Source: Candidatus Poseidoniaceae archaeon
Lineage (GTDB): Archaea; Thermoplasmatota; Poseidoniia; Poseidoniales; Poseidoniaceae
NCBI GenBank assembly: GCA_049438185.1
Contig: JBMTJI010000006.1
Location: forward strand, 10,859 to 74,858
DNA: 64,000 nucleotides
Direction: 5' to 3'
Shown: one piece after another, positions 4,372 through 50,570 of the stretch
Numbering within the stretch: the stretch's first letter is position 1
Layout of the letters: the number at the start of each line of letters is the position of its first letter
Program-made: the position numbers and the translations under genes
Notes under the pieces: model-generated
Seen by the model: the letters and a program-made list of their open reading frames with translations, nothing else
What the model was told of the DNA's origin: nothing
The model's database searches: none

Positions 4372-5345
4372 TGGAAGAAAAATGGGTTCTCTTGACCAAC
4401 GATGATGGAATTGAAGCCCCGGGCTTCGAACTTCTTGTCAAAGCTATGAACAAGGCAGGAATTCCAATCATTGCTTTTGCACCATCAGGGAACAAATCTG
4501 CCTGCAGTATGCAATTGAATCTCGGAACACCGATCGATCTTCACAATCGAAATGAATTGATTCACAAGTGGAGACTTGATGAATCGATTGGCGTTCATTT
4601 GTTTGCACTTGACGGTACACCATGTGACACGATGATTGTTGCTCTTGATGGAGGCCTCAATCATGTACTTCCAGAGATTCAACCCTCGCTCGTTCTTTCG
4701 GGGGTCAATCTCGGACCAAATCTTTCTCAGGATTCGTATCACAGTGGGACGATGGGTGCTGCCCGTGAAGCGGGTTTGTATGGCATTCCAGCGATTGCAA
4801 GTTCCTATACTTCATTTGACCCCGAAGGGATGCATGTTGGTATTGATGCGACTGTTGAACTTGTTCAACGTGTTCTACCTCTCGTTCCAAAAGTACCGCA
4901 GAACCTTTGTCGTCCTCACATTGATGCTCGTTCAAAACACGTCTCATCATGGCCAAATCCTGCAGTCGAACGTTCACAACGTGAAGCAGATCAACAACTC
5001 ATGAGCGCATTCCATCATGGAGAACTCATGCTGAATCTGAACGTTCCTCCAGAATGGAATGGTGCCTACCAAACAACCCGATTGGGAATGCGATGGTACC
5101 GAAATGCCGTTCAATTCGGAAAGGGTAAAGCAGGTTCAGTTGAATCGACCTTCACCATTGGAGCGGCTTATATCGATACGGAAACAGTCGACAATGGGGA
5201 TTGTGATTCGGTCGCATCTGGTTATGCAAGTATTTCCTCACTTCCAACGTGGCCACAGACGCATCCGCTTGCACTTGATGACGAATTACTCGCACATGCA
5301 CTTCGTGCTGACGAGACAGGACATCCGACTTGGTTCAGAGGTTGA
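4368..5345 (+). CDS. surE: 5'/3'-nucleotidase SurE
   Basis: N-terminal VLLTNDDGIEAPG, the diagnostic SurE motif. 325 aa. ATGA-type overlap with the upstream gene. Confidence 0.75.
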   Translation: MMEEKWVLLTNDDGIEAPGFELLVKAMNKAGIPIIAFAPSGNKSACSMQLNLGTPIDLHNRNELIHKWRLDESIGVHLFALDGTPCDTMIVALDGGLNHVLPEIQPSLVLSGVNLGPNLSQDSYHSGTMGAAREAGLYGIPAIASSYTSFDPEGMHVGIDATVELVQRVLPLVPKVPQNLCRPHIDARSKHVSSWPNPAVERSQREADQQLMSAFHHGELMLNLNVPPEWNGAYQTTRLGMRWYRNAVQFGKGKAGSVESTFTIGAAYIDTETVDNGDCDSVASGYASISSLPTWPQTHPLALDDELLAHALRADETGHPTWFRG

Positions 5346-5988
5346 GTTGAACGCCCTCATCAAGCAGGAAATGACAAATCGCTATTGCATGATGTCCTTG
5401 CAGCCAAGTTGTTCCGAGCGACCTGGCAATGCCTGCATCCACATCTAACGGCTGATCGTCCGAGAGTAAGAAGGCTATCGAATCTTCATTCGGTGTTGAT
5501 TGGATTGGAATTGCGCTTTCTTGTTTCCAGAGACGCTCAGCATCTGCATCGAGTCGTATCAATGTCGAATCCTTCCATTCAGCAATCGTATGGGACAGTT
5601 TACCGCCTCCATCGTAAAGACCCGGCGTACGCTCAACCCAGTGACCAATCGCTGGCAGAGGCTCTCGAATGGCTTTGGCAATCAGTCCAGCAACGCTTCG
5701 CTCCTCAGCATGAAAACCTCGAAGCTCGGAACCAACAAATTTCAATCGACGTTGCGCCCCTGGACCTCCTTGAAGATGGAGGACAACTTCCACATCCTCC
5801 CGTAGCCCATGCGAAGTCAACAAGGCGGACATAACGGCACGAATGAGCACATCCATTCGACCAGCACCTCCTGCAAGGTCGTTCAGGGGTAATTTCCCTT
5901 TGCTCATCGCTCGATGGCCAATGACAGCAAAACGTCGCACATCAATCGCCTCGCTCGATGATGATCCGTAGTGCATCATTGAGGTCAT
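5335..5988 (-). CDS. trmY: tRNA (pseudouridine54-N1)-methyltransferase TrmY (SPOUT family)
   Basis: RFAVIGHRAMSKGKLPLNDLAGGAGRMDVLIRAVMSAL matches the archaeal TrmY/Mja1640-family N-terminus. Start chosen at Met32-36 of the long ORF, which overlaps the CoaBC 3' end by about 40 nt. About 215 aa. Confidence 0.6.
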   Translation of the reverse strand: MTSMMHYGSSSSEAIDVRRFAVIGHRAMSKGKLPLNDLAGGAGRMDVLIRAVMSALLTSHGLREDVEVVLHLQGGPGAQRRLKFVGSELRGFHAEERSVAGLIAKAIREPLPAIGHWVERTPGLYDGGGKLSHTIAEWKDSTLIRLDADAERLWKQESAIPIQSTPNEDSIAFLLSDDQPLDVDAGIARSLGTTWLQGHHAIAICHFLLDEGVQLNL

Positions 5989-7138
5989 CCTGTGTCTCAA
6001 GGACAAAATGACTTCCTTGCTTATCGACAAGGTATCCTCGAGGTTTTGATTGGTCACCAAGATCTTCCAATCGGTTTGCAACTACAGCGGTCATTTCAGA
6101 ATGTTCGATTTGAGCAGTTGCCCGATGAATTAAATCGCGTTGCTTGATTCCAGTTTCTAATTTGAATCCAATTCGTGTTGAACCTCGAACCTTTTCCTTC
6201 AATTCTTGAATGTGTTTTGCACCTTCAACGAGATTGACTTGCAGCGGTCCTTGTTGACTAGCCAACTTTCCTTCAGCAGGTGCTTCAACAACGTAATCAA
6301 GCACAGCAGCGGCATGAACCCATGCTTGAATCTCATCGTTTGCAAGCGCTTTCAGTTCTGAAAGCATTTCATCAGGCTGTTCTGCTTTGATGCAAAGGGG
6401 TAACCATGGTGGCTGGGCAATACTTGTTCTTCCAACAACACATGTCACATCGTGTCCGTATCGGTACAACTCATCTGCAAGAGCGTAACCTGTTGCTCCT
6501 GAGCTAGTGTTCTGCACACCACGTACATCATCGATTGGCGAGTAAGTTCCTCCAAGTGTAATCACGACATTCTTTCGATACGACAATTTTGAATTGATTC
6601 CATGAGCAAACCTGGCAACGATGTGTTCGTGACTCGGTGTCTTTCGCTTTCCTTCTTCTAGGTCGCCCCACATCACATCAATGCCTTCCTCGCGCAAACG
6701 GTCAACGATGTCATCGGTGACTGGATCATCGGCGAGGTCTGCATGCATGCTTGGAACCATCAGTACGTGGGTGTTTCGTGAACGTGCCGCGCTGAGTGCC
6801 ATTAACAGTGGTCCTTGCTGCATGCCATGCAGGTGAGCAGCAATTGTGTTCCGAGTTGCAGGCGCTACAAGAATTGCATCAACATCCTCAAGTTGTTTCA
6901 TGTCACCATCCCAATCGGTGATGACCTGGCATTGGCTTGCCCATTCAATGGCGAGTGGCGTAATGACACGTCGTGCACTTTCCGTCATGATCACCAGCAT
7001 CTCCGCCCCATGCCTTCGCATTTCACGTAGAAGTCGTACCGAATCAACTGCTGCGATTCCACCTGTGACGCCAACAAGTATACGCTTGCCAGCAAGGCTG
7101 GAGCCACGTATTTCTACGTCGGTATCACGGACGCTCAT
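5942..7138 (-). CDS. coaBC: Bifunctional phosphopantothenoylcysteine decarboxylase / phosphopantothenate-cysteine ligase (CoaBC/Dfp)
   Basis: N-terminal flavoprotein domain GKRILVGVTGGIAAVDSVRLLREMRRHGAEMLVIMTESA ... ILVAPATRNTIAAHLHGM. C-terminal CoaB domain (VVITLGGTYSPIDDVRGVQNTSSGATGYALADEL). Start set at MSVRDTDV. Confidence 0.8.
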   Translation of the reverse strand: MSVRDTDVEIRGSSLAGKRILVGVTGGIAAVDSVRLLREMRRHGAEMLVIMTESARRVITPLAIEWASQCQVITDWDGDMKQLEDVDAILVAPATRNTIAAHLHGMQQGPLLMALSAARSRNTHVLMVPSMHADLADDPVTDDIVDRLREEGIDVMWGDLEEGKRKTPSHEHIVARFAHGINSKLSYRKNVVITLGGTYSPIDDVRGVQNTSSGATGYALADELYRYGHDVTCVVGRTSIAQPPWLPLCIKAEQPDEMLSELKALANDEIQAWVHAAAVLDYVVEAPAEGKLASQQGPLQVNLVEGAKHIQELKEKVRGSTRIGFKLETGIKQRDLIHRATAQIEHSEMTAVVANRLEDLGDQSKPRGYLVDKQGSHFVLETQDDLNDALRIIIERGD

Positions 7139-9426: not shown

Positions 9427-11589
9427 TCAAATCCTAGTTGTTTGATTCTTTCTGAATACAACCAGCATGGCTAGGGTCATGACAACGATTGTTGACAACA
9501 CCCCAACCCCTGGAGTCGATTCACTCTCTTGTTTTGTTTGATGCTCTTCAATAGGGACGGTTTTGACCGCTTCTGTATAGACCCCATCCAAACACGTACC
9601 GTCACCAACGATTAATTCCGATTGATTAGAGGATAACACAACGGCCGTACTCGGATCGGAATTCAAATCCTCTTTCTCGTATAATGTAGTCTCAATGGAA
9701 TAACATCCACGGTTCATAGACAGCATCAAATCGTATTGTTCACCACTCGATTGAATGTCTTCCCACCACCATATTCCATTCCATTCACCACTACTGATGT
9801 TCTTGGCAACGATAATGGCAGTGTAGACCGTACCTTGGGCAAGATCCTTCACTTCGGATTGGTACGCATACGTCCATGATGCATCCAAATCATCAGGTGT
9901 GTTTGTAGGGCGGAGATGGTTCAATTGAATCTCTTCATCAACGTCGATAACAGGCGGATTGTATTCTCTCCATAACCAAACCATGTTGCTTTCATGGCGA
10001 CGAGTGTCCTCTCCAACGAGGACACTACCATCATCAAGGACAACGAGATTATCTGGTCCAGCAAGGTTGTTCATGTCACATTGGTATTGATTTGAGGAGA
10101 TGTATGGTCCTCCGATGATGGCGGGGTGAATCCTGTTAACATTCCACAATTCGTTCATCGTCATCTGGTAGACGATCCCGCAAAGGTTGTCTGAAACATC
10201 GATATCACCTTGTCCGTCGGTCATTGCATTGTCGATACTGGACATGGCGAGGTAAAGATTGTCCGGAGCGTTTTGATTAAAACCGACCCCTTCCATTTTG
10301 TTCCACTCATCAGTAGCTCCTATTGCTGCAGCCGCTTTACGGGTTTCAAGGAAAGCTACACGGTCATCCAAGGCATAACCAATGGTCCCATCGTTGTTCA
10401 AATCTTGATTTAGATAATCCTCTGCCCAATTGTTGATTTCTTCATCGGTAATGTACGAGTTTTCTCCTTGAATATAATCAGCAGTTGTTATGCCGTCATA
10501 ATCATCAATCCAACCTTGGATTTCATCGTTTGATGAAGATCCAAGTTCCAGCCATTCGACGTCAAACCCAGTTGAAGCAGAATTGTATGTGGAATCTTGT
10601 GTAACTTTTGCAGAATAAAGCGTACCTTCACTCAAATCACCTGCTGTATCTGCCTCGAATTTGAAGAAGACCGTTTCATAGCCATCATCGGTCAGATAGA
10701 CCGTCTTGTTATCGGGCATGACCAAAGCATTCTCATGTGAAAAACGACCCATAGTAAGGTGTCGTATCAGTTCAGGCGTTGTCGATGTTGCCTGTTCCAT
10801 CTCGATGATGTAACCATAATCGTATGGATTTGGATAATGCCCAAGATACTGCTCAAGGCGTAGTTGGTCTGAGTGATATCGATATCCATCGTTGTTCCAA
10901 TCCTCTGTATCATCAAAGTACAATTCTTCAGAGAACAATGGGGTACTCCAAGGGCTGACACTTCCAAAACAAAGAACCCAAGCTCCATTGATGTCTGAAA
11001 GATTCAACATTTGCTTTGAGAGAACATCCCATTCGCTTGATGATGGATTCCATTCGAGTTCGACTTGGCTGATACCCGCTGGACGATCCTCCCACGCAGT
11101 GTAGAGATATCCGGTGGTTCCATCGGAATTCGTTGGAATAAATGCATTGTAATCGGGTTTTTGACTCAACAAAATCTGTTGGCCGTCGTGTGCTGAGTAA
11201 ATTCCTCCAGCGATTGTACCGTCATCCATTGAATCTCCTGCTTGCAGGAGAACCTGGTAGTCGCCATAACCGGTTCGAATACCATGCCAAATGTCTGAGG
11301 CACTGCTCGATGATGAAAGCGAGGGAACTTCTTCAGGAAGGTTATTCCAGTCCACACCATTGATCACGCCAATTGTGGCATCATAATTGTCCGGATCAGG
11401 ATGCATTGCGTTCACAAAGAAGCGCCCGTTTTCATCGACATACATACCGGTTGCTTCTGCTTCAGGAGGGAGCATAACGATACGAATCATCTGATCTTCC
11501 TCTTCACTTTCTGCGACAACAAGGGGTGAAGAGAACAAACAGACCATCATGCCGACACAAAACAAGGTGAGTAGAGGTCGCATTCGCAT
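9427..11589 (-). CDS. Secreted PhoX-like (COG3211/DUF839) putative phosphatase with C-terminal TM anchor
   Basis: N-terminal signal peptide (MRMRPLLTLFCVGMMVCLFSSPLVVAES). Beta-propeller-like repeats. AGPDNLVVLDDGSVLVGEDT resembles the PhoX C-terminal motif. The extreme C-terminus is ESESTPGVGVLSTIVVMTLAMLVVFRKNQTTRI (sorting-signal-like). Confidence 0.45.
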   Translation of the reverse strand: MRMRPLLTLFCVGMMVCLFSSPLVVAESEEEDQMIRIVMLPPEAEATGMYVDENGRFFVNAMHPDPDNYDATIGVINGVDWNNLPEEVPSLSSSSSASDIWHGIRTGYGDYQVLLQAGDSMDDGTIAGGIYSAHDGQQILLSQKPDYNAFIPTNSDGTTGYLYTAWEDRPAGISQVELEWNPSSSEWDVLSKQMLNLSDINGAWVLCFGSVSPWSTPLFSEELYFDDTEDWNNDGYRYHSDQLRLEQYLGHYPNPYDYGYIIEMEQATSTTPELIRHLTMGRFSHENALVMPDNKTVYLTDDGYETVFFKFEADTAGDLSEGTLYSAKVTQDSTYNSASTGFDVEWLELGSSSNDEIQGWIDDYDGITTADYIQGENSYITDEEINNWAEDYLNQDLNNDGTIGYALDDRVAFLETRKAAAAIGATDEWNKMEGVGFNQNAPDNLYLAMSSIDNAMTDGQGDIDVSDNLCGIVYQMTMNELWNVNRIHPAIIGGPYISSNQYQCDMNNLAGPDNLVVLDDGSVLVGEDTRRHESNMVWLWREYNPPVIDVDEEIQLNHLRPTNTPDDLDASWTYAYQSEVKDLAQGTVYTAIIVAKNISSGEWNGIWWWEDIQSSGEQYDLMLSMNRGCYSIETTLYEKEDLNSDPSTAVVLSSNQSELIVGDGTCLDGVYTEAVKTVPIEEHQTKQESESTPGVGVLSTIVVMTLAMLVVFRKNQTTRI

Positions 11590-40652: not shown

Positions 40653-41579
40653 ATGTTCCTTTCCAAAGAGGTTGCCACCATCGCAGGCGCTCTTGGAATG
40701 GTTTTTCTCGCCATATCATGGCACAGACGGCACAATGAAGGTGTTTCACGCCTCGCTCAATGTGGTTGGATTTTGGTCGGCCTGTATTTCTTCAACGACT
40801 CCTTATATTATTTCGAACTTGAGGATCTTGTACTTACCATCATGACGGCGCTAGCACTGCCGATTTCGGTAGCATTGGTGATTGCAGAAGCTCGATCGTT
40901 GACGGAACGTGATCGAGCAGCCCTCAATTGGGCACGTGGATGCGTTGCCTATGCAGGAGGCCCCTACCTTCTTGTCGCTCACATTCCATGGCTCTCTGTT
41001 TTGGCGATTTGGTTCGTTGCTTCTCAAGTCGCTATGTTCCTGTCCTTCACCGGGACAGTGGATATCAAACTCGGTGAAACGTATGTCAATACATCTGAAG
41101 GTCGCTTTTTGTGGGACGATTGGGATGGCAACAAGTGGTTCATGACCGACGGTTTTGCAGAACACCCGTTCCAAACAGAATTGATCATGGCCGATGGTGG
41201 ATTCATTGGCATTAATTTCGTATTAGCTTGTACTGCGCTTCAATCGATGATCGTATTTATTGGAGCGATTTCAGTCCTTGATGTCGATCGAAAGCGCCGC
41301 ATTCGAGCCCTGCTCTTCACGGTACCAATCATTCACATTCTCAATCTGTTCCGAAATGCAGGGCTTGTATGGATGCATCTCTCTTACGAAGGATGGGAAT
41401 ACCTTGGTTTGAGCATGTTCGAATTTGGACATTCTTATGCTGCACGAGTCGTCTCGCTCTTTGCCATGTTTGTGATGGCGATTGCGATGTTCGAGTTACT
41501 TCCTGAGTTGCATCGACACATCCTTCGATTGATGGATGCATCTGGACTTCGTAAGAAAAAGACGAAGATTAGTCCTTAA
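40653..41579 (+). CDS. Archaeosortase/exosortase-family membrane protein (candidate archaeosortase)
   Basis: 308 aa polytopic. Cys193 in VLACTALQS (cf. exosortase CSGxRS). Arg234 in NLFRN is 41 residues downstream, the same spacing as H. volcanii ArtA Cys173/Arg214. A third Arg is at 265. Confidence 0.55.
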   Translation: MFLSKEVATIAGALGMVFLAISWHRRHNEGVSRLAQCGWILVGLYFFNDSLYYFELEDLVLTIMTALALPISVALVIAEARSLTERDRAALNWARGCVAYAGGPYLLVAHIPWLSVLAIWFVASQVAMFLSFTGTVDIKLGETYVNTSEGRFLWDDWDGNKWFMTDGFAEHPFQTELIMADGGFIGINFVLACTALQSMIVFIGAISVLDVDRKRRIRALLFTVPIIHILNLFRNAGLVWMHLSYEGWEYLGLSMFEFGHSYAARVVSLFAMFVMAIAMFELLPELHRHILRLMDASGLRKKKTKISP

Positions 41580-44500
41580 TCCAAGGTGAATCAGGATCGT
41601 CACGATGCCATAGTCGTCCACTGTTCGGTGGATATTCAATGTGCTCTCGACCCTTTGAATCCATCATTCCCATCAAACTCGCTGCTGGCTGGTCATGTTC
41701 GGGTTGAGACTCAAAATTATCCCCGCCAAAGTCGTAGATGGGTATATTGGTTGTTTGGCCAGATGGGGCAACTTCGTTCACGATGATTGATTGCAGTGCC
41801 TGACGTCCGGTGGATGATGCTTCTGCAAGGTTGTCACCCATATTCAACATCTGTTCTGAGAAAGCATCTGTTTTGTTCCATTCTTGATCCAAGTTTTGGC
41901 GAGAACCGCCTCCGCCACGGGCAAAGAGAACCAAGAGCCCGATGAGGACGATGAGCATAGCCCCTCCAGCACCATAGAGCATGTCATTGGCAACGCTTGG
42001 TGCAAAGTCAGCATTGTCGCCGATTCCGTCACCATCTGCGTCTTTTGACTCATTGGGATCGTTGGGGAATTGATCATCAACATTTGGCACACCATCACCA
42101 TCTGTATCGAATGGATTGAAGGTGGTCTTACAGTTTTCAATCGCTTCCTCAAGTTCATCTTGTGTGATGTAGTCGTCGCCGTTTTCGTCCAAGAACTTCA
42201 AATCGTAGGTATTTCTCAAATCCAACGATTCAAAGAATTCCGTCGAAGTCTTATACGGAAGTTGCTCCATCATCGAATTGAGTTCGTTCTCGCACGTGCA
42301 CGAGAATGCAACAACTTCAGTGAATTCAATCATACCATCGCCATTCACATCAACATCGGCAAATTCGATATCATTTGGTGGATCTGACCGCCTAAACTCA
42401 TCCGCATTCATCAATCCATTGCCGTTGATATCAACCTCTTCGAAAAACTCTTCGAGATTATAATCGCATGCATAGATATCTTCGGGTTCAGGTTCAGGAT
42501 CTGGGTCTGGCCCTGGACGGTCGTTTGTTTTCCAATAGGCAACAATGGAGACATCTGAGAAATCATCTTGTGCAACGACTGTAATGTCAAAACGACCCGC
42601 TGCAGGTGAATAGATGTACAATTCTTGGTAGGTACCTTCTCCATATGATGTGAACTCTTCTTCGAAGATGTCCTCATCCATAAAGTCATCAAAACCTTCG
42701 AACTCATCAAAGCCGAAGAAATCGCCATAGTCCACCTCGCCATCAGCAGTGATGTACAGTGAACCGTCTCCACCAAATGTTGTGATGATCAGTTCTTCTG
42801 CGCGAGACTCGAGATCGACATAGAAATAGAGTTCTTCTCCGGCAGGAGCACTGAGTCCGTCGACGTCTTCATCATTGAACAACTCAATCGGTGTACCATC
42901 GTATTCCCAAATGTAGAGGTCTTCGAAGGATGCTGTGATCGACACTCCACTGAACACACTTTCAGAGTCGAGGAGAATGTGCCACTTGCCTGGAGTTGGG
43001 TTGTTGAATCCAATCTTGTCTCCTGCACCTGGAGCTCCTGAATGATGATCTGCTTCGCTTGCCGTAGGTGTGTTTTCATAGCGCATGTGGAGCGTTGCCT
43101 CACCGAATCCTCCGTCGAGGTCAACTTCAAGTCGCTCTGTTCCAGTTGGAACGTCGATGAAGAAATATTGGTCAAGACCATCGTAACCGCTCATTGGCCC
43201 ATATGCAACACCTGGTTGTAATTCGATAGCAGTTGATGGATCTGCATTGTCTGGTGCATACGTGAAATCAGCGACGATTGTGAAATCAGAAGCCTTTCGA
43301 TAGGTGAAGGCTGTGATGTAGTATATTCCAGGTTCGACATCAAACAAATTAACCTCTTCACCATTACCATCGTTGGTTGACCAAGCAATGTTGCTTTGCT
43401 GATATTCTGCTACGGAATATTCATCAAAATATGGTTCCCCGTAATAGTAGTAGTAATTCGGGTCAATCGGCCCTCCTGAGGAGAGAATAAGGTCGATGTT
43501 TCCTTTTCCTCCATACGTTTCAATCTTCAATTCTGTGAGTGAATCGGTAACATTAACGTAATAGTATTCCAAGGCCGCATCCCAGCTATCACGACCGGAT
43601 TCGACGGTTTGGGATGTGATGGGGACACCATTGAACAACTGGGTCATTTCATCAAGACTTGGTGGCTCTTCGGCAACTTCCCAAGAGGCGATGATTTCCA
43701 ATTCCTCGATGTCTTGCTTGGCAACGATGGAGTACCACATAATATTGTGTTCTGGCCATGTCCATGAGTTGAAGACTGAACCCCAATAACTGGTCAACTC
43801 CATGTCGTAATCCCAAGGCGCTGGTATGCGATCGTAACCAACATATGCGTCGAAGAGCATGTTCTCTTCGTAATCATAATCCCAATCGTCGTAAAATATT
43901 TCAGACCAAGAATAAATAGCAATGTCGGTCATGAATGTGTAGTCGTCGAGTTCTGCATAGAAGAGGAGGGTGTCGCCTTCCTGGATGTTTTCCAATACAA
44001 GGAATTCATCGTTGGGTAGTTCTACCGCTTGCGCGACGATCGAACCATCAGGCATGACCCAATCGGCACCGTGAATGGTACCAATACGATCCATTGTAGC
44101 ATCGTTCAATGCATCCCCTGTGTCCCCACCTTCACCTTCCCAGAACGTCCATCGACTGACAGGCTCCCACATGTTCTGTTCAACAAATGAGATGGTAAGG
44201 TCATCGATGATGCCTTCGAAATGATAGCAGTCGCAACCAGCACCCATTCGAGCGATGTACAATTCATCGCATGCGTCGCCTGAGGTGAAACAGTCATTGG
44301 AGCCAAAATCCCCTTCAGGAATGTTGGCATCCTCGGCAGAAATGTTCCCTGCAGGAACACCATCAATGGTGAAAAATCCTCCAACTCCTTCGATGAGTTG
44401 AACACCGATGGTATGCCAGGTGCCTTCAGTAATGCTCATGTTGGATGTCGGATGCTTGGAAAGACTGTATTCGGATGCGTATCCAATGGCGCCATTAGAG

Positions 44501-45195
44501 AGATACATGCCCCATCCATAATCCCCTTTCATGGTAATAAATCGAATACCATCAAGACTGCTTGCTTTGATGGTCGCTTCGATGTTCAGCGTTCCATTTG
44601 CGATCAAACCCTCGTCATGGTCGATGACGATGTGGTCTTCAATACCATCAAATCTGAGAGAGAAATCTGCACCGGGTCCAACTTCAACAACACCGTAGAC
44701 GGGGAAGTATTCTGGATTGTTTTCCAAATCGTTCCATGTTTGAGGATCAATGTTGCCCATGTTGGTTGAAGCGATGTGTACATAGTCAGAATCATCTCCT
44801 CCTGTTGGTTGGTCGACACCCCAATTGCGGTACAAGAATGGCGTGCCATCGTGCCATCGGTAAATGCCTTCGTCTTGAACATCGTTCAATCCAATCCACA
44901 AATGCCGACTTTGATTGTCAAAACTGGCAAAGGTGTCGAATACCCAAGTGTTCTCTTCAGAATCGTCGATGGTCGTTAGATAACCATCGAGAGAACGCGC
45001 CTTGAACGCAGCATCTTCCCAAGACGATGCGGAGAGAAGGTGGTACGTCTTGTTGTTATCGGGATTGACTGCTGTATGCAAGATATCGATTTCATCGAGT
45101 TCACTTGAATTTGCTTGAACCATTGCGACCATGCATGTTGAGGCGAGCATCATCAGAATCAGTGTTGTAGCAACGAACGGAGAGCCTTGGGCCAT
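41569..45195 (-). CDS. Giant multidomain cell-surface protein: signal peptide, Cys-less C-type-lectin-like domain, LamG/ConA-like, 3x PPC (pre-peptidase C-terminal)-like domains, TSP3/EF-hand/dockerin-like Ca-binding repeats, TM helix and ~115-aa cytoplasmic tail
   Basis: 1208 aa. CTLD pattern WIGLNDVQDEGIYRWHDGTPFLYRNWGVDQP...WNDL. PPC-like YYVNVTD...GKGNIDLIL and QYFFIDVP...LHMRY. DVNGDGMIEF (EF-hand/dockerin). DTDGDGVPNVDDQFPNDPNESKDADGDGIGDNAD (TSP3-like). TM LIVLIGLLVLF. Confidence 0.8.
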   Translation of the reverse strand: MAQGSPFVATTLILMMLASTCMVAMVQANSSELDEIDILHTAVNPDNNKTYHLLSASSWEDAAFKARSLDGYLTTIDDSEENTWVFDTFASFDNQSRHLWIGLNDVQDEGIYRWHDGTPFLYRNWGVDQPTGGDDSDYVHIASTNMGNIDPQTWNDLENNPEYFPVYGVVEVGPGADFSLRFDGIEDHIVIDHDEGLIANGTLNIEATIKASSLDGIRFITMKGDYGWGMYLSNGAIGYASEYSLSKHPTSNMSITEGTWHTIGVQLIEGVGGFFTIDGVPAGNISAEDANIPEGDFGSNDCFTSGDACDELYIARMGAGCDCYHFEGIIDDLTISFVEQNMWEPVSRWTFWEGEGGDTGDALNDATMDRIGTIHGADWVMPDGSIVAQAVELPNDEFLVLENIQEGDTLLFYAELDDYTFMTDIAIYSWSEIFYDDWDYDYEENMLFDAYVGYDRIPAPWDYDMELTSYWGSVFNSWTWPEHNIMWYSIVAKQDIEELEIIASWEVAEEPPSLDEMTQLFNGVPITSQTVESGRDSWDAALEYYYVNVTDSLTELKIETYGGKGNIDLILSSGGPIDPNYYYYYGEPYFDEYSVAEYQQSNIAWSTNDGNGEEVNLFDVEPGIYYITAFTYRKASDFTIVADFTYAPDNADPSTAIELQPGVAYGPMSGYDGLDQYFFIDVPTGTERLEVDLDGGFGEATLHMRYENTPTASEADHHSGAPGAGDKIGFNNPTPGKWHILLDSESVFSGVSITASFEDLYIWEYDGTPIELFNDEDVDGLSAPAGEELYFYVDLESRAEELIITTFGGDGSLYITADGEVDYGDFFGFDEFEGFDDFMDEDIFEEEFTSYGEGTYQELYIYSPAAGRFDITVVAQDDFSDVSIVAYWKTNDRPGPDPDPEPEPEDIYACDYNLEEFFEEVDINGNGLMNADEFRRSDPPNDIEFADVDVNGDGMIEFTEVVAFSCTCENELNSMMEQLPYKTSTEFFESLDLRNTYDLKFLDENGDDYITQDELEEAIENCKTTFNPFDTDGDGVPNVDDQFPNDPNESKDADGDGIGDNADFAPSVANDMLYGAGGAMLIVLIGLLVLFARGGGGSRQNLDQEWNKTDAFSEQMLNMGDNLAEASSTGRQALQSIIVNEVAPSGQTTNIPIYDFGGDNFESQPEHDQPAASLMGMMDSKGREHIEYPPNSGRLWHRDDPDSPWIKD

Positions 45196-45278: not shown

Positions 45279-48200
45279 CTATTCGATTTTCTTTCCACCA
45301 ATTCGTAATTCCGTATGGAGTGGCATTTGGTGTTCCCAGGCAAATTCTTTCACAATACGCCAGCCCTTTTCGCTACCTTCGTAATCCGTCACATCGATTG
45401 TTTTGTTCCGAGTATTTGCTTTGAAAGCGGCAACTGGTTCAGCATTTCGGAACACAAGATAGGCGCTTCCGAAACCAAATTTTTCTTTTAGAACATCTCC
45501 AAAGTACGGTGCAATAGGGTCTGTTGGTGGTAAGACAAAGTCCCGGATTGGGTTGATCGTTTTGGCTGTTTCAAGCAGTTCTTTTCGCCCCCAACAAACT
45601 TCATGCAAATTCTCGATGAGGAATCCTTTGACGAGTGTTCCATCTTCCTCAAATTCATTGAGAACGGCTTTGAGTTCTTCTGGTTTAAATGGTGTGCCAG
45701 ATAATCGTAGTAATTGTTTGATAGTGATGACCGGATAATCCTTGACGAGATTTCGTAAATATTCCCGTCGAAGGTGAACGGGATCTTCGTCGGTTCTCGG
45801 GTGAACAGCACGGAATCCCCCACGAAAATCTTCTACGATATGTCCTGTTCGAATAAGCGGCTGAACGAGTTTCCTAAATTCAGATTGAGTGAGTGCATGA
45901 CGTTCCTTGAAGATGTTAGGATCGGTTTGTGAACTGAAGAAATCGATAATGTCAACCAAATCTTCCTCGGGAGGGATACCGCGAATGCTAAGCAAGGTTT
46001 CGAAGTATTCGTACGGTGCCCATACCTGGTGACCTCGCATATTGACACCTTTGTGCAAACGGTTTGCGCTGGCCATTGACTTGAGATTCGTTCGGAACAC
46101 TTCGCAGCGGCCACGTAAGGCAAAATCATCACGAATTTCCTTGATTTTGCGAAGGGCTAACGTCTCATTCTCGTGACGGGTTTCTTGATGCAGATGATGT
46201 TGATGGAAGAGGGCACGCTCGGCAATTTCACGAGGCTGTGGGTCGACAACACCACCTCGAATCATTCGTTCCCCAACTTGTTTGAATCCTATTCGTTCTA
46301 AACCATCACGCATTGGTTTGCTGAGTTCTGAAATTGGTTCACTGTTTACATTTGTGAGCACTGCAACATCAACCAATTGATCGGCATGATTTTCGAGCAA
46401 AATCAGGAAGGCATCACAAAATTCTTCAAAATAGGCCGTTGGAACATGCATGTCTTTGATTTCGAGATAATCGTTGACTCGGAACATCAAGACTTTGCCA
46501 ACAGGATCGACCCCTTTGAAGACAGGAAGATACCATCCTCGATCCAATGCTGAACGGACTTCCCAAATAAATCGAGAAACGTATGGGTCGGATTGTGTTA
46601 AAATCCGGATCGTACGATCTTCGCGTCGTGGAACTTGCAACATTTCAACTTCAGTTGGTGTACAGTAGAAGTCCTCAGTATCGGGAACCAAGGCAGTGAC
46701 CTTTGAAATACGGCCACTCGTTTCTAAATTATGCAAAGCTACGAGAAGATCTTCATAATTCCTCGACACATAAAATCGCAACGTGCTTGCCTTCACAGGA
46801 CCCATGCGACGAACAACTTCTTCCAGAGCATCTTCGAAATCCATTGGCTTGTAGACGCCATAGACCTTGTGGAACAACGACAATCGACGACGACGTCCAA
46901 TGACCTCTTCGAATTGCTTTACAAACAGCATTTGTCGGTCAAGATTTGAAATCGCATTTTTGACATCCCGTTCCATTTGTCGATGTTCCTCACCTTTCGG
47001 GAAATCTTGAACCAATTCTTGTCGCGTGATGTTTTCTTCTGGGTCAAGTTTGGAGAGAACAACCTCTTCCATCGCTCCTATCCATGGTTCTGGTTTGAGT
47101 CCAAGAAGCATTGGGATGTTGTTCTTTGTCGTGTACCCCATGCGATTGTGAAGCAATCGACCGCTGACGACATCGGAATCGAGCTGCAAATCTTTCCAAT
47201 CTTTGAATCTGAAGTCTTCAATTCTGTAGAGTAATTCTTGTTGTTTCTGTACCAGGACATGTTCGTTAAATGCCTCGAATACATCATCGTATTTTTTGAA
47301 CGATTTATCGAGAACAAGATTTTGAATCCACCGATATTCAACAATATCTTCCTCTCCACCAGTGATGCGATGTTCGTCAACCTTTAGGATCAGTTCTGCT
47401 TCATCTGTTTGCGTAAAGAAGCCAACGGAAAGGACGTTTCGGGTTTCGAGTTCATGAACGATACGATCGACAGATTTCTCAGAGAATGGAAGTCGTTGAT
47501 GCAAAACTTCGGTTGTTTTCGGCCCTTCAGAACCGAGAATTTCGAGCACTTTGACTCGGAGTGCTTCATGAGGATCACCTACCGATACGGTCTTCCACTT
47601 GGTAGGCGTTGTCTTGTCAAATTCGTTCGCGATTTTGAAGGACATTCCTTTTGTATCGTAATCTCGTAAATCAACGATTGATTTCGAATCATTTGAAGCA
47701 AGGCAAGCGAGTGTACCGTGAATTTCAGCCATGAATGGGTTGAACCATTTCCCATCAATTTCTGGTTCACCCGTACCATCAATTTTGGTAATTTTTCCTC
47801 CCTTGCAAAGTTCTTCAACCCACGTTCGAATGAGGTCTAAATCGATGCCTTCCAACTTTTCTCGATACAATGGATTGTTGAACTCTCGGTCAAGTCCACC
47901 TCCGTGTTGCATAAGCTCGTAAAGCGTTTGTGGAGAATGAGGTACTGGGGCTTTGTCGGTGTAGTACTTGTCCAGTTGTTCCTTGGTCATTTCAGTCGCA
48001 AGGCTTCGTGTCCCCATCAATCGTCGAAGGACTTCTGGATCGATGTCTTTGACAAGGAAAGCACGGGTTTTCATGGACATAAGATCCTCAAATGCGGACA
48101 TGTAGAGGCTCATACCGAGTCGTGAAGGAATGGTTACCTTGGTGTGTACAATCCGAGCATCACCTTCGATGCATGATTCGAGGAATTGGTTGAGACCAAA

Positions 48201-50570
48201 GACGTCAATGTCTCCGAACAATACTTCATTCTTGGCTTCTCTCATAAGCAGCGAGTTTTCCATTGTTCGATGTCTTGTAAGCAAAGCCTCTGCCTTTTGT
48301 TGGAATTGTTGCGGACTAATTTCTTCTGCACCAACACGTTTTGGAATGATCATCGAACGTCCAGCAACTTCTCGAAATCGCTTTGCAAAAATTTGTGTGT
48401 TGATGATGTATCGTTCAATTACTTCGATATGGTTGTTTGAACGGAATGCTTCGTACAATTGTCCTGGGTCGACTTCTTGAGCCGTTCGAATCAGTAACCC
48501 ATTCTCATCAAAAGACAGTTCGATGACACTCACGCCAGAAGTTTCTGCAATTCCGGCCATAAAATAACCAAGTGCAGTATTGAATGCACGTCCCCTACAT
48601 GTCGTAATCAAGTACGCTGGATGTCCTGTGCCGATGATTTGTTCGATAAGGATACGATTTGCCTCAGGAACCTGGAAACTATCGATGGTGTGTTCTTCCA
48701 GATGACGGGCGATTGCATTCGAAACAGGTGTAGAGAGGCCATATGCGTCACGAAGGACAACGCGCGGGTCTTCCTCCCTGCGTAATGAAATCATGCAGTG
48801 TTGAATCAAGGAGAGAAGTGATGATGACAATTCACGGCTCCTTGACCTTGCTTCACCTGACCACGATGGGACTGTTGGTCTGTATCCGGTGACACTTGAC
48901 ACATTGACACGGGTACCCTGAATGTTGGTAACCCGATAGGTGGAACCACCAAGGAGGATGACGTCACCTCCCCGCAAATTCGAAACGAAGGAACCTGAAA
49001 GTTGTCCAAGAATCGACCCCTCTGCATTGAAAACCAGATAGGAATTGTCAGGAGCAATCGTACCGATGTTGGTATAATAGATCATTCGAGAATAGCCTCG
49101 TTTTCCGTACGTGTTGTCTTCCCAGTCAATCCATACACGACGTTCTTCCTCAAGCATATCCAAAACTTCAATGAAATCATCGTATTCAAAATTTCTATAA
49201 TTCCATGCACTGGAGACGATTTCAAAGGCTTCATCGATGTCGATTTCATTGATAATCACCAAACCAATGAGGAATTGTGCGACAACATCGAGACAATTTT
49301 CTGGGAAATCAAGACGATCCATATCTCCGGATTGAATGGCTGCTTGCAAGGCAGCAAGCTCAATCAAATCATCGACACTGGAAGGTAAGAATCGTGCACG
49401 AGGTATACCACCTACATGGTGTCCAGCACGTCCAATTCGTTGCAATGCTGTAGCAATGTCGCCAGGCGATCCAAGTTGAATCACCATGTCAACCGTACCG
49501 ATGTCGATACCCATTTCCAATGATGAGGATGTAACTACAGCCCTGAGGTGGCCATTTTTCAGTTGCTGCTCAACGTTGAGTCGAATCTTTTTATCCATTG
49601 AACCATGATGGCCAGCAACCAATTCACCCAAGCCAAACTCAGGACGTCGGAGTCGCTGAACAAGGGTTTCTGTCATCTTTCGGGTGTTTGCAAAGACCAG
49701 TGTGGTTGTGTGTGCTGCGATAAGATCGGCAATGACGCTGATGTTTTCATCCAAAACTTTCAGGACGGGTAAATCACTAAATTTTGGATGAGGTAGCAAA
49801 ATATCCAGATCAAGTTCTCTTGAACCAGAGACTTTTGCAATGTGGACTTGTTGTCCCTCGCCTCGTGATTCCCGATCATCACTTGCCACCAAATACTCTG
49901 CAACGGTTTCGAGCGGTTCCATGGTGGCTGAAATACCGATACGTTGTACTGGTCGTTCGAGGAGTGTGTCAAGATAAGCAAGCGTGAGTGCAAGGTGGAC
50001 ACCACGTTTGGTTGGCACCAGCGAATGCAATTCATCAATAATCATGTATTCAACATCACTTATGATTGGTTGAAACTTTGGTGAAGTAATAGCAATTGCA
50101 AGGCTTTCCGGTGTTGTGATAAGAATGTGTGGAGGATTTCGAAGCATCTTTTGCCGTTCTGATTGCGGTGTATCTCCAGTGCGCAATCCAACTCGAATTT
50201 CTTGCGCCCTGTCAGGCAAAAAGCGCTCAGAGATTTCATTCAGTGGGCCGATGAGATTCTTTTGAATATCATTTGCAAGCGCTTTGATTGGAGAAATATA
50301 CACGCAATGAATTCGCTTTTCCAATTTCCCATCAAGTGCTTTTCGTACCAGTTGATCGATAATCGTAAGGAATGCGGTCAATGTTTTTCCAGACCCTGTT
50401 GGAGAACACAACAAGAGGTGGCCACCGTCCATAATGGTTGGAATGGCTAGTTTTTGTGGCCGAGTGAAATCAGGAAATTTATCCTTGAACCAATTTCGGA
50501 CTGGTGGACACAATTTGTCCATCAGAGCATCCGTTTCGGTTGGATGTTGGAGATATGTAATCTCAGGCAT
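45279..50570 (-). CDS. lhr: Lhr-like large SF2 helicase (DEAH) with long winged-helix-rich C-terminal region
   Basis: 1763 aa. Walker A CSPTGSGKTLTAF, motif II DELH, SAT, QRIGRAGH motif VI. Long C-terminal extension as in full-length Lhr. Confidence 0.75.
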   Translation of the reverse strand: MPEITYLQHPTETDALMDKLCPPVRNWFKDKFPDFTRPQKLAIPTIMDGGHLLLCSPTGSGKTLTAFLTIIDQLVRKALDGKLEKRIHCVYISPIKALANDIQKNLIGPLNEISERFLPDRAQEIRVGLRTGDTPQSERQKMLRNPPHILITTPESLAIAITSPKFQPIISDVEYMIIDELHSLVPTKRGVHLALTLAYLDTLLERPVQRIGISATMEPLETVAEYLVASDDRESRGEGQQVHIAKVSGSRELDLDILLPHPKFSDLPVLKVLDENISVIADLIAAHTTTLVFANTRKMTETLVQRLRRPEFGLGELVAGHHGSMDKKIRLNVEQQLKNGHLRAVVTSSSLEMGIDIGTVDMVIQLGSPGDIATALQRIGRAGHHVGGIPRARFLPSSVDDLIELAALQAAIQSGDMDRLDFPENCLDVVAQFLIGLVIINEIDIDEAFEIVSSAWNYRNFEYDDFIEVLDMLEEERRVWIDWEDNTYGKRGYSRMIYYTNIGTIAPDNSYLVFNAEGSILGQLSGSFVSNLRGGDVILLGGSTYRVTNIQGTRVNVSSVTGYRPTVPSWSGEARSRSRELSSSLLSLIQHCMISLRREEDPRVVLRDAYGLSTPVSNAIARHLEEHTIDSFQVPEANRILIEQIIGTGHPAYLITTCRGRAFNTALGYFMAGIAETSGVSVIELSFDENGLLIRTAQEVDPGQLYEAFRSNNHIEVIERYIINTQIFAKRFREVAGRSMIIPKRVGAEEISPQQFQQKAEALLTRHRTMENSLLMREAKNEVLFGDIDVFGLNQFLESCIEGDARIVHTKVTIPSRLGMSLYMSAFEDLMSMKTRAFLVKDIDPEVLRRLMGTRSLATEMTKEQLDKYYTDKAPVPHSPQTLYELMQHGGGLDREFNNPLYREKLEGIDLDLIRTWVEELCKGGKITKIDGTGEPEIDGKWFNPFMAEIHGTLACLASNDSKSIVDLRDYDTKGMSFKIANEFDKTTPTKWKTVSVGDPHEALRVKVLEILGSEGPKTTEVLHQRLPFSEKSVDRIVHELETRNVLSVGFFTQTDEAELILKVDEHRITGGEEDIVEYRWIQNLVLDKSFKKYDDVFEAFNEHVLVQKQQELLYRIEDFRFKDWKDLQLDSDVVSGRLLHNRMGYTTKNNIPMLLGLKPEPWIGAMEEVVLSKLDPEENITRQELVQDFPKGEEHRQMERDVKNAISNLDRQMLFVKQFEEVIGRRRRLSLFHKVYGVYKPMDFEDALEEVVRRMGPVKASTLRFYVSRNYEDLLVALHNLETSGRISKVTALVPDTEDFYCTPTEVEMLQVPRREDRTIRILTQSDPYVSRFIWEVRSALDRGWYLPVFKGVDPVGKVLMFRVNDYLEIKDMHVPTAYFEEFCDAFLILLENHADQLVDVAVLTNVNSEPISELSKPMRDGLERIGFKQVGERMIRGGVVDPQPREIAERALFHQHHLHQETRHENETLALRKIKEIRDDFALRGRCEVFRTNLKSMASANRLHKGVNMRGHQVWAPYEYFETLLSIRGIPPEEDLVDIIDFFSSQTDPNIFKERHALTQSEFRKLVQPLIRTGHIVEDFRGGFRAVHPRTDEDPVHLRREYLRNLVKDYPVITIKQLLRLSGTPFKPEELKAVLNEFEEDGTLVKGFLIENLHEVCWGRKELLETAKTINPIRDFVLPPTDPIAPYFGDVLKEKFGFGSAYLVFRNAEPVAAFKANTRNKTIDVTDYEGSEKGWRIVKEFAWEHQMPLHTELRIGGKKIE

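Follow-up and report, generated by a model that had tools for sequence, protein, structure and literature searches.

The disulfide bonds of C-type lectin-like domains (CTLDs) are usually taken as a hallmark of the C-type lectin fold. Among the closest described systems are the animal long-form carbohydrate-recognition domains (CRDs) of CEL-I, SRCL/CL-P1, DC-SIGN and the mannose-receptor family (PF00059); in the mannose receptor and the selectins, which are type-I membrane proteins with a cytoplasmic tail, the CTLD lies at the end farthest from the membrane. The present analysis concerns a gene for a protein of comparable layout in an archaeon, a 1208-residue surface protein encoded in a 64,000-nucleotide stretch of contig JBMTJI010000006.1 from a Candidatus Poseidoniaceae archaeon (the window, to which all positions below refer). 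The Poseidoniales (Marine Group II, MGII) are the most abundant planktonic archaea of the surface ocean and are uncultured. The CTLD of this protein shares with the animal CRDs the predicted fold, the WIGL and WND motifs, a Q/E-P-x tripeptide and the long loop. It differs from them in lacking C0' and C1-C4, in having Q-P-S/T in place of EPN or QPD, and in being only 19-26% identical in sequence, and the remaining architecture of the protein is prokaryotic (PPC, Laminin_G_3).

The closest relatives of the domain are found in bacterial proteins with disulfide-free CTLDs, some of which also pair Lectin_C with Laminin_G_3. The closest of them (the best 120 matches, 170-273 residues) are short and often carry an exosortase signal, and the bacterial domains keep EPN or QPD, whereas the archaeal protein is 1208 residues long and has a transmembrane helix and a long tail; neither Pfam nor NCBIfam gave a PEP-CTERM match in the archaeal protein or in its membrane-proximal segment. 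A literature search found nothing on this archaeal family or on the disulfide-free prokaryotic CTLD clade, and no experimental characterisation of either, a weak absence because the coverage was incomplete. The haloarchaeal S-layer glycoprotein and PGF-CTERM substrates of archaeosortase A (ArtA) are likewise large, acidic, Sec-exported and C-terminally anchored, and the gene described here lies beside that for ArtA. The protein differs from these substrates in having no PGF-CTERM signal, 115 residues after the transmembrane helix and unrelated domains.

Two reports provide an archaeal context. Halomucin (Hmu) of Haloquadratum walsbyi HBSQ001 is a 9159-residue secreted mucin-like protein with two CTLDs (IPR001304), a pair that is strain-variable and absent in strain C23 (PMC4378361); compared by description, the Poseidoniales family differs in being membrane-anchored, fixed in architecture and order-wide. 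In the accessible passages of Rinke et al. 2019 (PMC6461757), 'thrombospondin genes' are widespread in Ca. Poseidoniales by KEGG Orthology annotation and are read as adhesion factors, so that a capacity for adhesion in MGII was inferred independently there; as far as those passages go, the interaction of Poseidoniales with phytoplankton and particles has been deduced mainly from flagellar and 'thrombospondin' genes. These genes probably reflect the same kind of annotation signal as the Asp-rich, thrombospondin type-3 (TSP3)-like repeats described below, and they may belong to the same family. The same passages contain no domain analysis, and in the protein studied here the TSP_3 match lies below its cut-off and covers only a small part of the sequence. 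The original prediction, made from the DNA sequence alone, had called a calcium-dependent lectin or adhesin architecture unusual for archaea, which is overstated in view of the halomucin CTLDs (PMC4378361) and the 'thrombospondin genes' reported across the order (PMC6461757, in part).

The C-type lectin-like domain and its missing disulfides

The protein is probably a Ca-stabilised, glycan-binding surface adhesin or receptor found across the Poseidoniales, a reading that rests on its domain content, predicted fold and conservation. Its open reading frame (ORF) runs uninterrupted from ATG to stop and encodes 1208 residues, exactly where the original prediction had placed it; the strand, which had not been given, is the minus strand. 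A signal peptide comes first, then the CTLD and a LamG/ConA-like domain; four PPC-like beta-sandwiches lead on to three EF-hands and a pair of TSP3-like repeats, and a transmembrane helix and a tail complete the protein. The two features on which the argument turns are:

41569..45195, minus strand: complete ORF for a type-I membrane surface protein (uninterrupted ORF and >325 full-length homologs)
44671..45090, minus strand: disulfide-free long-form CTLD, residues 36-175, with WIGL, Q129-P-T131 and W154-N-D156 (Pfam Lectin_C, AlphaFold, Foldseek and cysteine mapping)

Homology to C-type lectins is evident at the profile level. Pfam Lectin_C (PF00059 / IPR001304) matches residues 56-156, at 38.5 bits when the full sequence is searched and at 43.2 bits (E 7e-11) when the segment is taken alone, against a gathering score of 22.6, and a precomputed PF00059 match is present in all 120 listed family homologs. 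In a phmmer search of the PDB sequences, the CTLD matched only animal CTLDs (mannose-receptor family, CEL-I, DC-SIGN, CD23). The WIGL motif of the hydrophobic core is present as W100-I-G-L103, and its W and G are invariant across the family.

A structural model of the domain was generated using AlphaFold (AF2) from an alignment deepened with the closest non-family relatives. The model is confident (predicted local distance difference test, pLDDT, 90.2; predicted template-modelling score, pTM, 0.86) and has the strand and helix order b0-b1-a1-a2-b2...b5. It supersedes an earlier model from the family-only alignment of 24 sequences (pLDDT 58, with the long-loop half below 50), for which Foldseek had returned CTLDs only, at a template-modelling (TM) score of about 0.5. 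Searched against the PDB with Foldseek, the confident model gave 463 matches at E<=1e-3, and every one of the listed top matches is a C-type lectin CRD, led by CEL-I (E 5e-9) and SRCL (2ox9_B; TM score 0.84, root-mean-square deviation 1.8 Å over 134 columns). The sugar-binding CRDs CEL-I, SRCL, MGL and DC-SIGN are all among the best structural matches. The CTLD assignment had been made from the consensus pattern, with structure prediction named as the check; the Lectin_C score of the isolated segment and the predicted fold, with its TM score of up to 0.84 to solved CRDs, both bear it out. By profile and predicted fold, the domain is a true C-type lectin-like domain.

None of the hallmark disulfides (C1-C4, C2-C3 and, in the long form, C0-C0') is found in the family CTLD. 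Ahead of residue 302 the query has a single cysteine, the C21 of its signal peptide, and residues 22-301 have none. In a 121-sequence alignment, the CTLD columns contain no cysteine in any member (121/121), and the cysteine-free domain noticed in the single sequence is thus confirmed for the family. The canonical cysteine positions were mapped by aligning the query with 40 Cys-rich CTLDs. The C0' position falls on T50 and the C1 position on A66, both invariant in the family; the C2 position falls on Y138 (Tyr in 104 and Phe in 17 of the 121 members) and the C3 position on N159 (N or D in 117/121). The C4 position lies in the Y-G-V-V-E-V strand, a probable assignment made by pattern, where V169 is present in 119/121 members and V170 in all. 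Hydrophobic and aromatic packing, of A66 with the V169/V170 strand and through Y/F138, would take the place of the disulfides.

This loss is specific to the CTLD lineage, because the same protein keeps invariant cysteines elsewhere. Eight are present in 121/121 members: residues 302, 309, 321 and 323 in the LamG region (44227-44292, minus strand, for residues 302-323), and residues 910, 966, 968 and 1022 in the EF-hand region (42127-42468, minus strand, for residues 910-1022). These eight probably form four extracellular disulfides. The organism evidently tolerates cysteine in exported proteins, where such residues may form disulfides.

At the putative Ca2+/sugar site, W154-N-D156, Q129 and P130 are invariant among the 121 members. 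The third residue of the tripeptide, residue 131, is Ser in 88 and Thr in 33, and is never the Asn of EPN or the Asp of QPD. Position 136 is Glu in 88/121 members and Ser or Ala in 33; the query combines Q-P-T with Ser136. The equal counts (88/33) suggest that the changes at residues 131 and 136 go together, and the combination of Q-P-T with Ser136 may represent altered ligand or metal binding in one lineage. Residues 129-137, where the two family states are seen, correspond to 44785-44811 on the minus strand. The following family-specific loop, H140-I-A-x-T-N-M-G-N-I-x-P151, is invariant.

Conservation of the domain is also high overall: the CTLD is 71% identical between members that are about 50% identical over their whole length, and only the TSP3-like repeats are comparable (73%). 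Because most of the Ca2+/sugar site and the invariant family loop are kept, the pattern argues for a CTLD that retains a modified Ca/ligand site aimed at one conserved ligand, and not at a diversifying repertoire.

Origin of the domain and distribution of the family

The family CTLD profile was searched against 1.84 billion representative proteins and returned 17,000 matches. The raw top ranks are animal multi-CTLD receptors, such as a Ptychodera mannose-receptor-like protein; they rise to the top because scores add over 8-16 repeats, and rescoring per domain disposes of raw rank as evidence for a eukaryotic affinity. Per domain, family members score 230-285 bits to the family profile, other domains with 0-1 cysteine score 60-113 bits, and Cys-rich animal domains reach 68 bits or less.

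A profile of the non-archaeal Cys-free relatives matched at least 1683 proteins at E<=1e-10. The best 120 of these are 170-273 residues long (often about 190), many pair the CTLD with PEP-CTERM (PF07589), and 83/120 have a PEP/PTP motif near the C-terminus. Named members among the best 120 come from Verrucomicrobiota, Vicinamibacterales, Pyrinomonadaceae and Tepidisphaerales (Verrucomicrobiota, Acidobacteriota, Planctomycetota). The 124 bacterial CTLD domains in these 120 proteins score 38-134 bits to the archaeal family profile (median 107); 107 of the 124 have no cysteine, and the canonical tripeptide is EPN in 79 and QPD in 29. Larger relatives join the CTLD with Laminin_G_3, NPCBM, PKD, SdrD_B or FlgD_ig, and one of them lies on a bacterial-looking 2.25-Mb contig with DUF1501 and cytochrome-c/HEAT neighbours. 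No CTLD relative turned up in a scan of viral contigs.

The archaeal and bacterial domains are 30-46% identical and have in common the Cys-free state, an N-terminal NPxN.H.Y.LL motif (a hairpin of the NPxNGHxYYLL type) and a terminal GVVEV strand. On the simplest interpretation, the CTLD of the Poseidoniales is a member or a sister of a prokaryotic disulfide-free lineage, and the Cys-free trait is shared with, and probably inherited from, the bacterial disulfide-free clade. The original prediction had described the adhesion domains as eukaryote-like. This does not hold for the CTLD, to which the bacterial disulfide-free domains (median 107 bits) are closer than the animal ones (68 bits or less); the eukaryote-like look stems from the make-up of the PDB and of the Pfam seed alignment. 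The C-type lectin fold is in this way documented in a large, apparently unstudied prokaryotic lineage that lacks disulfides, and the grouping of the archaeal CTLD with bacterial domains corrects the tempting interpretation as a horizontal gene transfer (HGT) from eukaryotes.

The taxonomic distribution points the same way. The family has >325 homologs; the 120 listed are all 1180-1343 residues long with the same Pfam content, and the named ones are called 'pre-peptidase C-terminal domain-containing protein' or 'hypothetical protein' and come from Poseidoniaceae, Thalassarchaeaceae or Poseidoniales. A scan of one genome per GTDB species gave 181 loci, that is, at least 181 species genomes. The 80 retrieved of the 181 loci are all from Poseidoniales or from metagenome-assembled genomes (MAGs) labelled 'Methanobacteriota/Euryarchaeota', apart from three contigs binned as bacteria. 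The three (L008, L011 and L057) had been assigned to MAGs of Salipiger bermudensis, Rhodobiaceae and Verrucomicrobiales, almost certainly by mis-binning of archaeal contigs: CTLD identity to the query is 74-93%, and L057 has the downstream ArtA gene as well.

Genomic neighborhood analysis adds to this picture. In 62/62 loci whose flank is long enough, the CTLD gene is adjoined upstream by one for an Lhr-type helicase. On the downstream side, an archaeosortase gene is present in 58/58, directly convergent in 32. The GC content of the gene (0.466) is close to that of the window (0.474). Distribution and synteny mark the gene as old and common to the order Poseidoniales, with no compositional sign of recent import. 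A phylogenetic profile had been proposed as a way to look for an HGT signal; presence in at least 181 species genomes, in syntenic position and with native GC, speaks against a recent import.

Stalk, calcium-binding base and cytoplasmic tail

The other parts of the protein, all encoded on the minus strand, are listed below.

45109..45195, minus strand: signal peptide, residues 1-29 (hydrophobic core 5-27; ...VQA/NS), by hydropathy
44020..44670, minus strand: LamG/ConA-like domain (Laminin_G_3) and conserved linker, residues 176-392, with Cys 302, 309, 321 and 323, by PF13385 matches in the family
43660..44019, minus strand: PPC-like beta-sandwich A, residues 393-512, without a Pfam match; hhalign to residues 761-893, probability 96.7%, E 4e-10
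43252..43659, minus strand: PPC-like beta-sandwich B, residues 513-648; Pfam PPC 24.5 bits; hhalign to residues 761-893 97.8% and to 649-760 88.8%
42916..43251, minus strand: PPC domain C, residues 649-760; Pfam PPC 41 bits, E 3.5e-10 (residues 677-743)
42517..42915, minus strand: PPC-like beta-sandwich D, residues 761-893, with an acidic insertion and without a Pfam match; hhalign to B 97.8%, to A 96.7% and to C 83.8%
42121..42477, minus strand: EF-hand module, residues 907-1025, with loops at 922 and 949 and a third near 1003, and Cys 910, 966, 968 and 1022, by Pfam
41986..42120, minus strand: two TSP3-like Asp-rich repeats, residues 1026-1070, DTDGDGVPNVDDQFPNDPN and DADGDGIGDNADFAPSVAN, by motif register, with TSP_3 below cut-off
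41917..41982, minus strand: transmembrane helix, residues about 1072-1093, with Arg and a Gly/Ser/Asn-rich stretch behind it (positive-inside), by hydropathy
41572..41916, minus strand: cytoplasmic tail, residues 1094-1208 (115 residues), a variable low-complexity linker followed by a conserved module, by alignment
41572..41700, minus strand: C-terminal module of about 35-43 residues, residues about 1166-1208, by order-wide conservation

Hydropathy picks out residues 5-30 as the signal peptide and residues 1071-1098 as the transmembrane helix, the two hydrophobic stretches of a strongly acidic protein (Asp+Glu 20%, Lys+Arg 3.7%). Family identity over the signal peptide is low (16%), as expected of signal peptides. 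A lipobox at C21 was considered and rejected: A-S-T-C is non-canonical and the cysteine is not conserved (median 0 Cys in the family signal-peptide region). The predicted topology is that of a Sec-type exported, single-pass membrane protein, N-out/C-in. A signal peptide, a transmembrane helix and a tail of about 115 residues had all been described before, and each was recovered here.

The LamG/ConA-like assignment is probable, by homology through family members. Laminin_G_3 (PF13385) is matched by 12 of 20 diverse members, which are 52-78% identical in the region (best E 4.9e-12), so that the domain named in the original prediction probably stands, even though residues 176-392 of the query have no Laminin_G_3 match of their own, either at E<=0.1 or, as an isolated segment, at E<=10. 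A profile of the LamG region found nothing significant among the PDB sequences; the best match, at E 0.19, is an 'S-layer domain-containing protein'.

Four PPC-like beta-sandwiches follow, where at least three had been expected. Only domain C scores above the PPC (PF04151) gathering score of 25.9; sandwich B lies just under it, and A and D are assigned by hhalign. The NCBI name 'pre-peptidase C-terminal domain-containing protein' describes the stalk only, because the 1208-residue protein contains no protease domain.

The loop DVNGDGMIEF had been read as EF-hand- or dockerin-like, and the EF-hand half of this reading is the correct one. EF-hand_1 (PF00036) scores 43.6 bits against a cut-off of 25.4 and EF-hand_7 (PF13499) 39.4 against 30, with three stretches above threshold, whereas dockerin type I (PF00404) reaches 12.8 bits against 22.9 (E 0.14) and was discarded; the loop is covered by the EF-hand models. 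The thrombospondin-type-3-like motifs fared similarly: the motif register is present, with DxDxDGxxDxxD..P...N repeats that begin at residues 1030 and 1052 and are 73% identical across distant family members, but the curated profile is not matched (TSP_3, PF02412, 21.5 bits against a cut-off of 25, E 1.8e-4), and F or A stands where TSP3 has Cys. Taken together, the Pfam annotation shows essentially every domain element of the earlier description to be correct, the refinements being the strand, the four PPC-like domains and the absence of a dockerin, and the domain analysis supports its picture of a surface-exposed protein rich in calcium motifs with lectin-type domains.

The cytoplasmic tail ends in a module with the pattern PP..LMGM.D..G.E.IEYP..SG..W.R..P..PW, in which G, M, G, E, P, S, W, R and W are invariant. 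Neither the tail of the query nor those of 17 members gave a Pfam match, and the PDB had none either. A hidden Markov model of the module matched only this gene among the window and 82 retrieved loci. The module probably docks a cytoplasmic partner, because a short terminal peptide stays conserved behind a variable linker. The suggestion that the tail could signal or anchor inward is therefore plausible, given this strongly conserved terminal module.

Proposed function, rival explanations and gene neighbourhood

In the proposed mechanism, a signal peptide at the N-terminus directs export and a single helix near the C-terminus holds the protein in the membrane. The CTLD and the LamG/ConA-like domain form a membrane-distal tip on a stalk of four PPC-type sandwiches, and the EF-hand and TSP3-like loops would bind seawater Ca2+ and stiffen the membrane-proximal base. 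The CTLD, possibly with the LamG domain, would bind a conserved glycan, whether of particles, of phytoplankton or of the organism's own cells, and the tail module would provide a link to the cell interior. Attachment of the cells to particles or to the surfaces of eukaryotes, as first proposed, is a reasonable conjecture. The domain partners of the bacterial relatives (PEP-CTERM, Laminin_G_3, NPCBM, PKD, SdrD_B) are glycan-binding or adhesin contexts. As a conserved, order-wide gene with two carbohydrate-recognition-type domains at the tip, this locus is a concrete, clonable candidate for what MGII cells bind.

Several points weigh against the adhesin or receptor assignment. Many CTLDs bind proteins, lipids or minerals, not sugars. 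With Q-P-T and Ser or Ala at position 136, canonical Ca-dependent sugar binding may be weakened or changed. Very high conservation is atypical of adhesins that meet variable ligands and suits a self or structural ligand equally well. The LamG and TSP3 assignments also fall below curated thresholds for the query sequence itself.

The genes flanking the ORF that bear on the alternatives, or frame the locus, are:

40653..41579, plus strand: archaeosortase A (ArtA), convergent, its 3' end overlapping the ORF by 11 bp (TIGR04125 98.4 bits, cut-off 75)
45279..50570, minus strand: Lhr-type helicase, 1763 residues, the upstream neighbour

Four other explanations were weighed. The protein could be a structural element of the envelope, a stalk or tether that organises or anchors the S-layer or glycocalyx through the glycans of its own cell, and not an external adhesin. 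Order-wide presence, fixed synteny and an extremely conserved ligand-facing loop would suit an invariant self ligand. The protein also resembles archaeal envelope glycoproteins in being large, rich in Asp and Glu (20%) and C-terminally anchored, three N-X-S/T sequons are conserved (N48, N252 and N548), and the gene adjoins that for archaeosortase A, which, according to the accessible part of 10.1101/2023.06.07.544157, matures the haloarchaeal S-layer glycoprotein. However, the sequon count is at chance level (7 against 6.7 +/- 2.3), the match of the LamG region to an 'S-layer domain-containing protein' is insignificant (E 0.19), and the combination of CTLD, LamG, PPC, EF-hand and TSP3-like parts is typical of adhesins, not of lattice-forming S-layer proteins; we regard a purely structural role as unlikely. 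It is decidedly unlikely that the CTLD is no lectin at all and binds protein, lipid or mineral, or serves as a structural cap, like the vertebrate CTLDs with degenerate Ca sites. Such a role would fit the non-canonical Q-P-S/T, the query's QPT type with Ser136 in place of Glu, and the retention of EPN or QPD by the bacterial relatives, which means that the archaeal family diverged at exactly this site. Yet Q129, P130, N155 and D156 are invariant, E136 is kept in 88/121 members, the best structural matches are sugar-binding CRDs (CEL-I, SRCL, MGL, DC-SIGN), and the CTLD is paired with a second carbohydrate-type module, the LamG/ConA-like domain.

The neighbouring ArtA raises a further option, namely that the protein is its non-canonical dedicated substrate, cleaved at or near the transmembrane helix so that helix and tail are removed and the ectodomain is lipid-anchored or released. 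The neighbour is notable because the bacterial relatives are exosortase (PEP-CTERM) substrates, 83/120 of the closest having a PEP/PTP motif near the C-terminus and many PF07589; the constancy of ArtA (98.4 bits) downstream in 58/58 loci, with direct convergence in 32, and the high conservation of the segment before the helix would also fit. Against it, there is no PGF motif, and the membrane-proximal segments of 6 diverse members gave no NCBIfam sorting-signal match at E<=10. About 115 residues, including a conserved module, follow the helix, but in known signals only a few basic residues come after it. By register, the conserved 'APSVAN' that precedes the helix is the end of the second TSP3-like repeat. 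The two genes are convergent and therefore not co-transcribed, an unrelated gene of about 365 residues lies between them in 26 loci, mostly of the Poseidonia clade, and synteny in any case extends over the region as a whole (Lhr, HAD, TiaS). This option is left with a slim chance. A recent horizontal acquisition of the domains from a eukaryote, for attachment to eukaryotic surfaces, is very improbable: it would explain why the PDB and Pfam matches are animal CTLDs and why the top summed scores belong to animal multi-CTLD receptors, but per domain the animal CTLDs reach 68 bits or less against up to 134 for the bacterial disulfide-free ones, the family is order-wide and syntenic with native GC, and the Cys-free state, the NPxN.H.Y.LL motif and the GVVEV strand are common to the bacterial clade.

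Within the preferred reading of a glycan-binding adhesin or receptor, a more specific proposal remains doubtful. The protein would act as a transmembrane glycan receptor, in which binding outside by the Q-P-S/T CTLD is coupled through the transmembrane helix and the C-terminal module to an intracellular partner; in a variant of this proposal, helix and tail would constitute a new, long sorting or regulatory signal for archaeosortase A, kept from the exosortase association of the bacterial relatives. If true, the receptor would be an archaeal functional analogue of the animal type-I CTLD receptors, built from a CTLD of bacterial lineage. The cytoplasmic module and the constant archaeosortase neighbour offer two leads on the biogenesis of, or signalling by, archaeal surface proteins. 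A simple regular-expression search among the ORFs of the window found no canonical PGF-CTERM protein. The literature search found nothing joining archaeosortase with Marine Group II, a weak absence given the incomplete coverage, and the word 'archaeosortase' does not occur in the accessible part of PMC6461757.

The gene of about 365 residues found between the CTLD gene and ArtA in 26 of the retrieved loci has an N-terminus containing ...RNRTVLAAMTNKQSHDDG...; examples are at 9625-10713 (minus strand) in L048, 9558-10658 (minus strand) in L080 and 5165-6304 (minus strand) in L033. No tRNA gene and no Rfam family at gathering thresholds was found anywhere in the 64-kb window. Downstream lie housekeeping genes for a HAD-IIIA phosphatase, the archaea-specific tRNA-Ile2 agmatidine synthetase TiaS and adenylosuccinate lyase. 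Upstream, the Lhr-type helicase bears an added C-terminal AlkZ-like DNA-glycosylase region (PF06224, E 9e-6).

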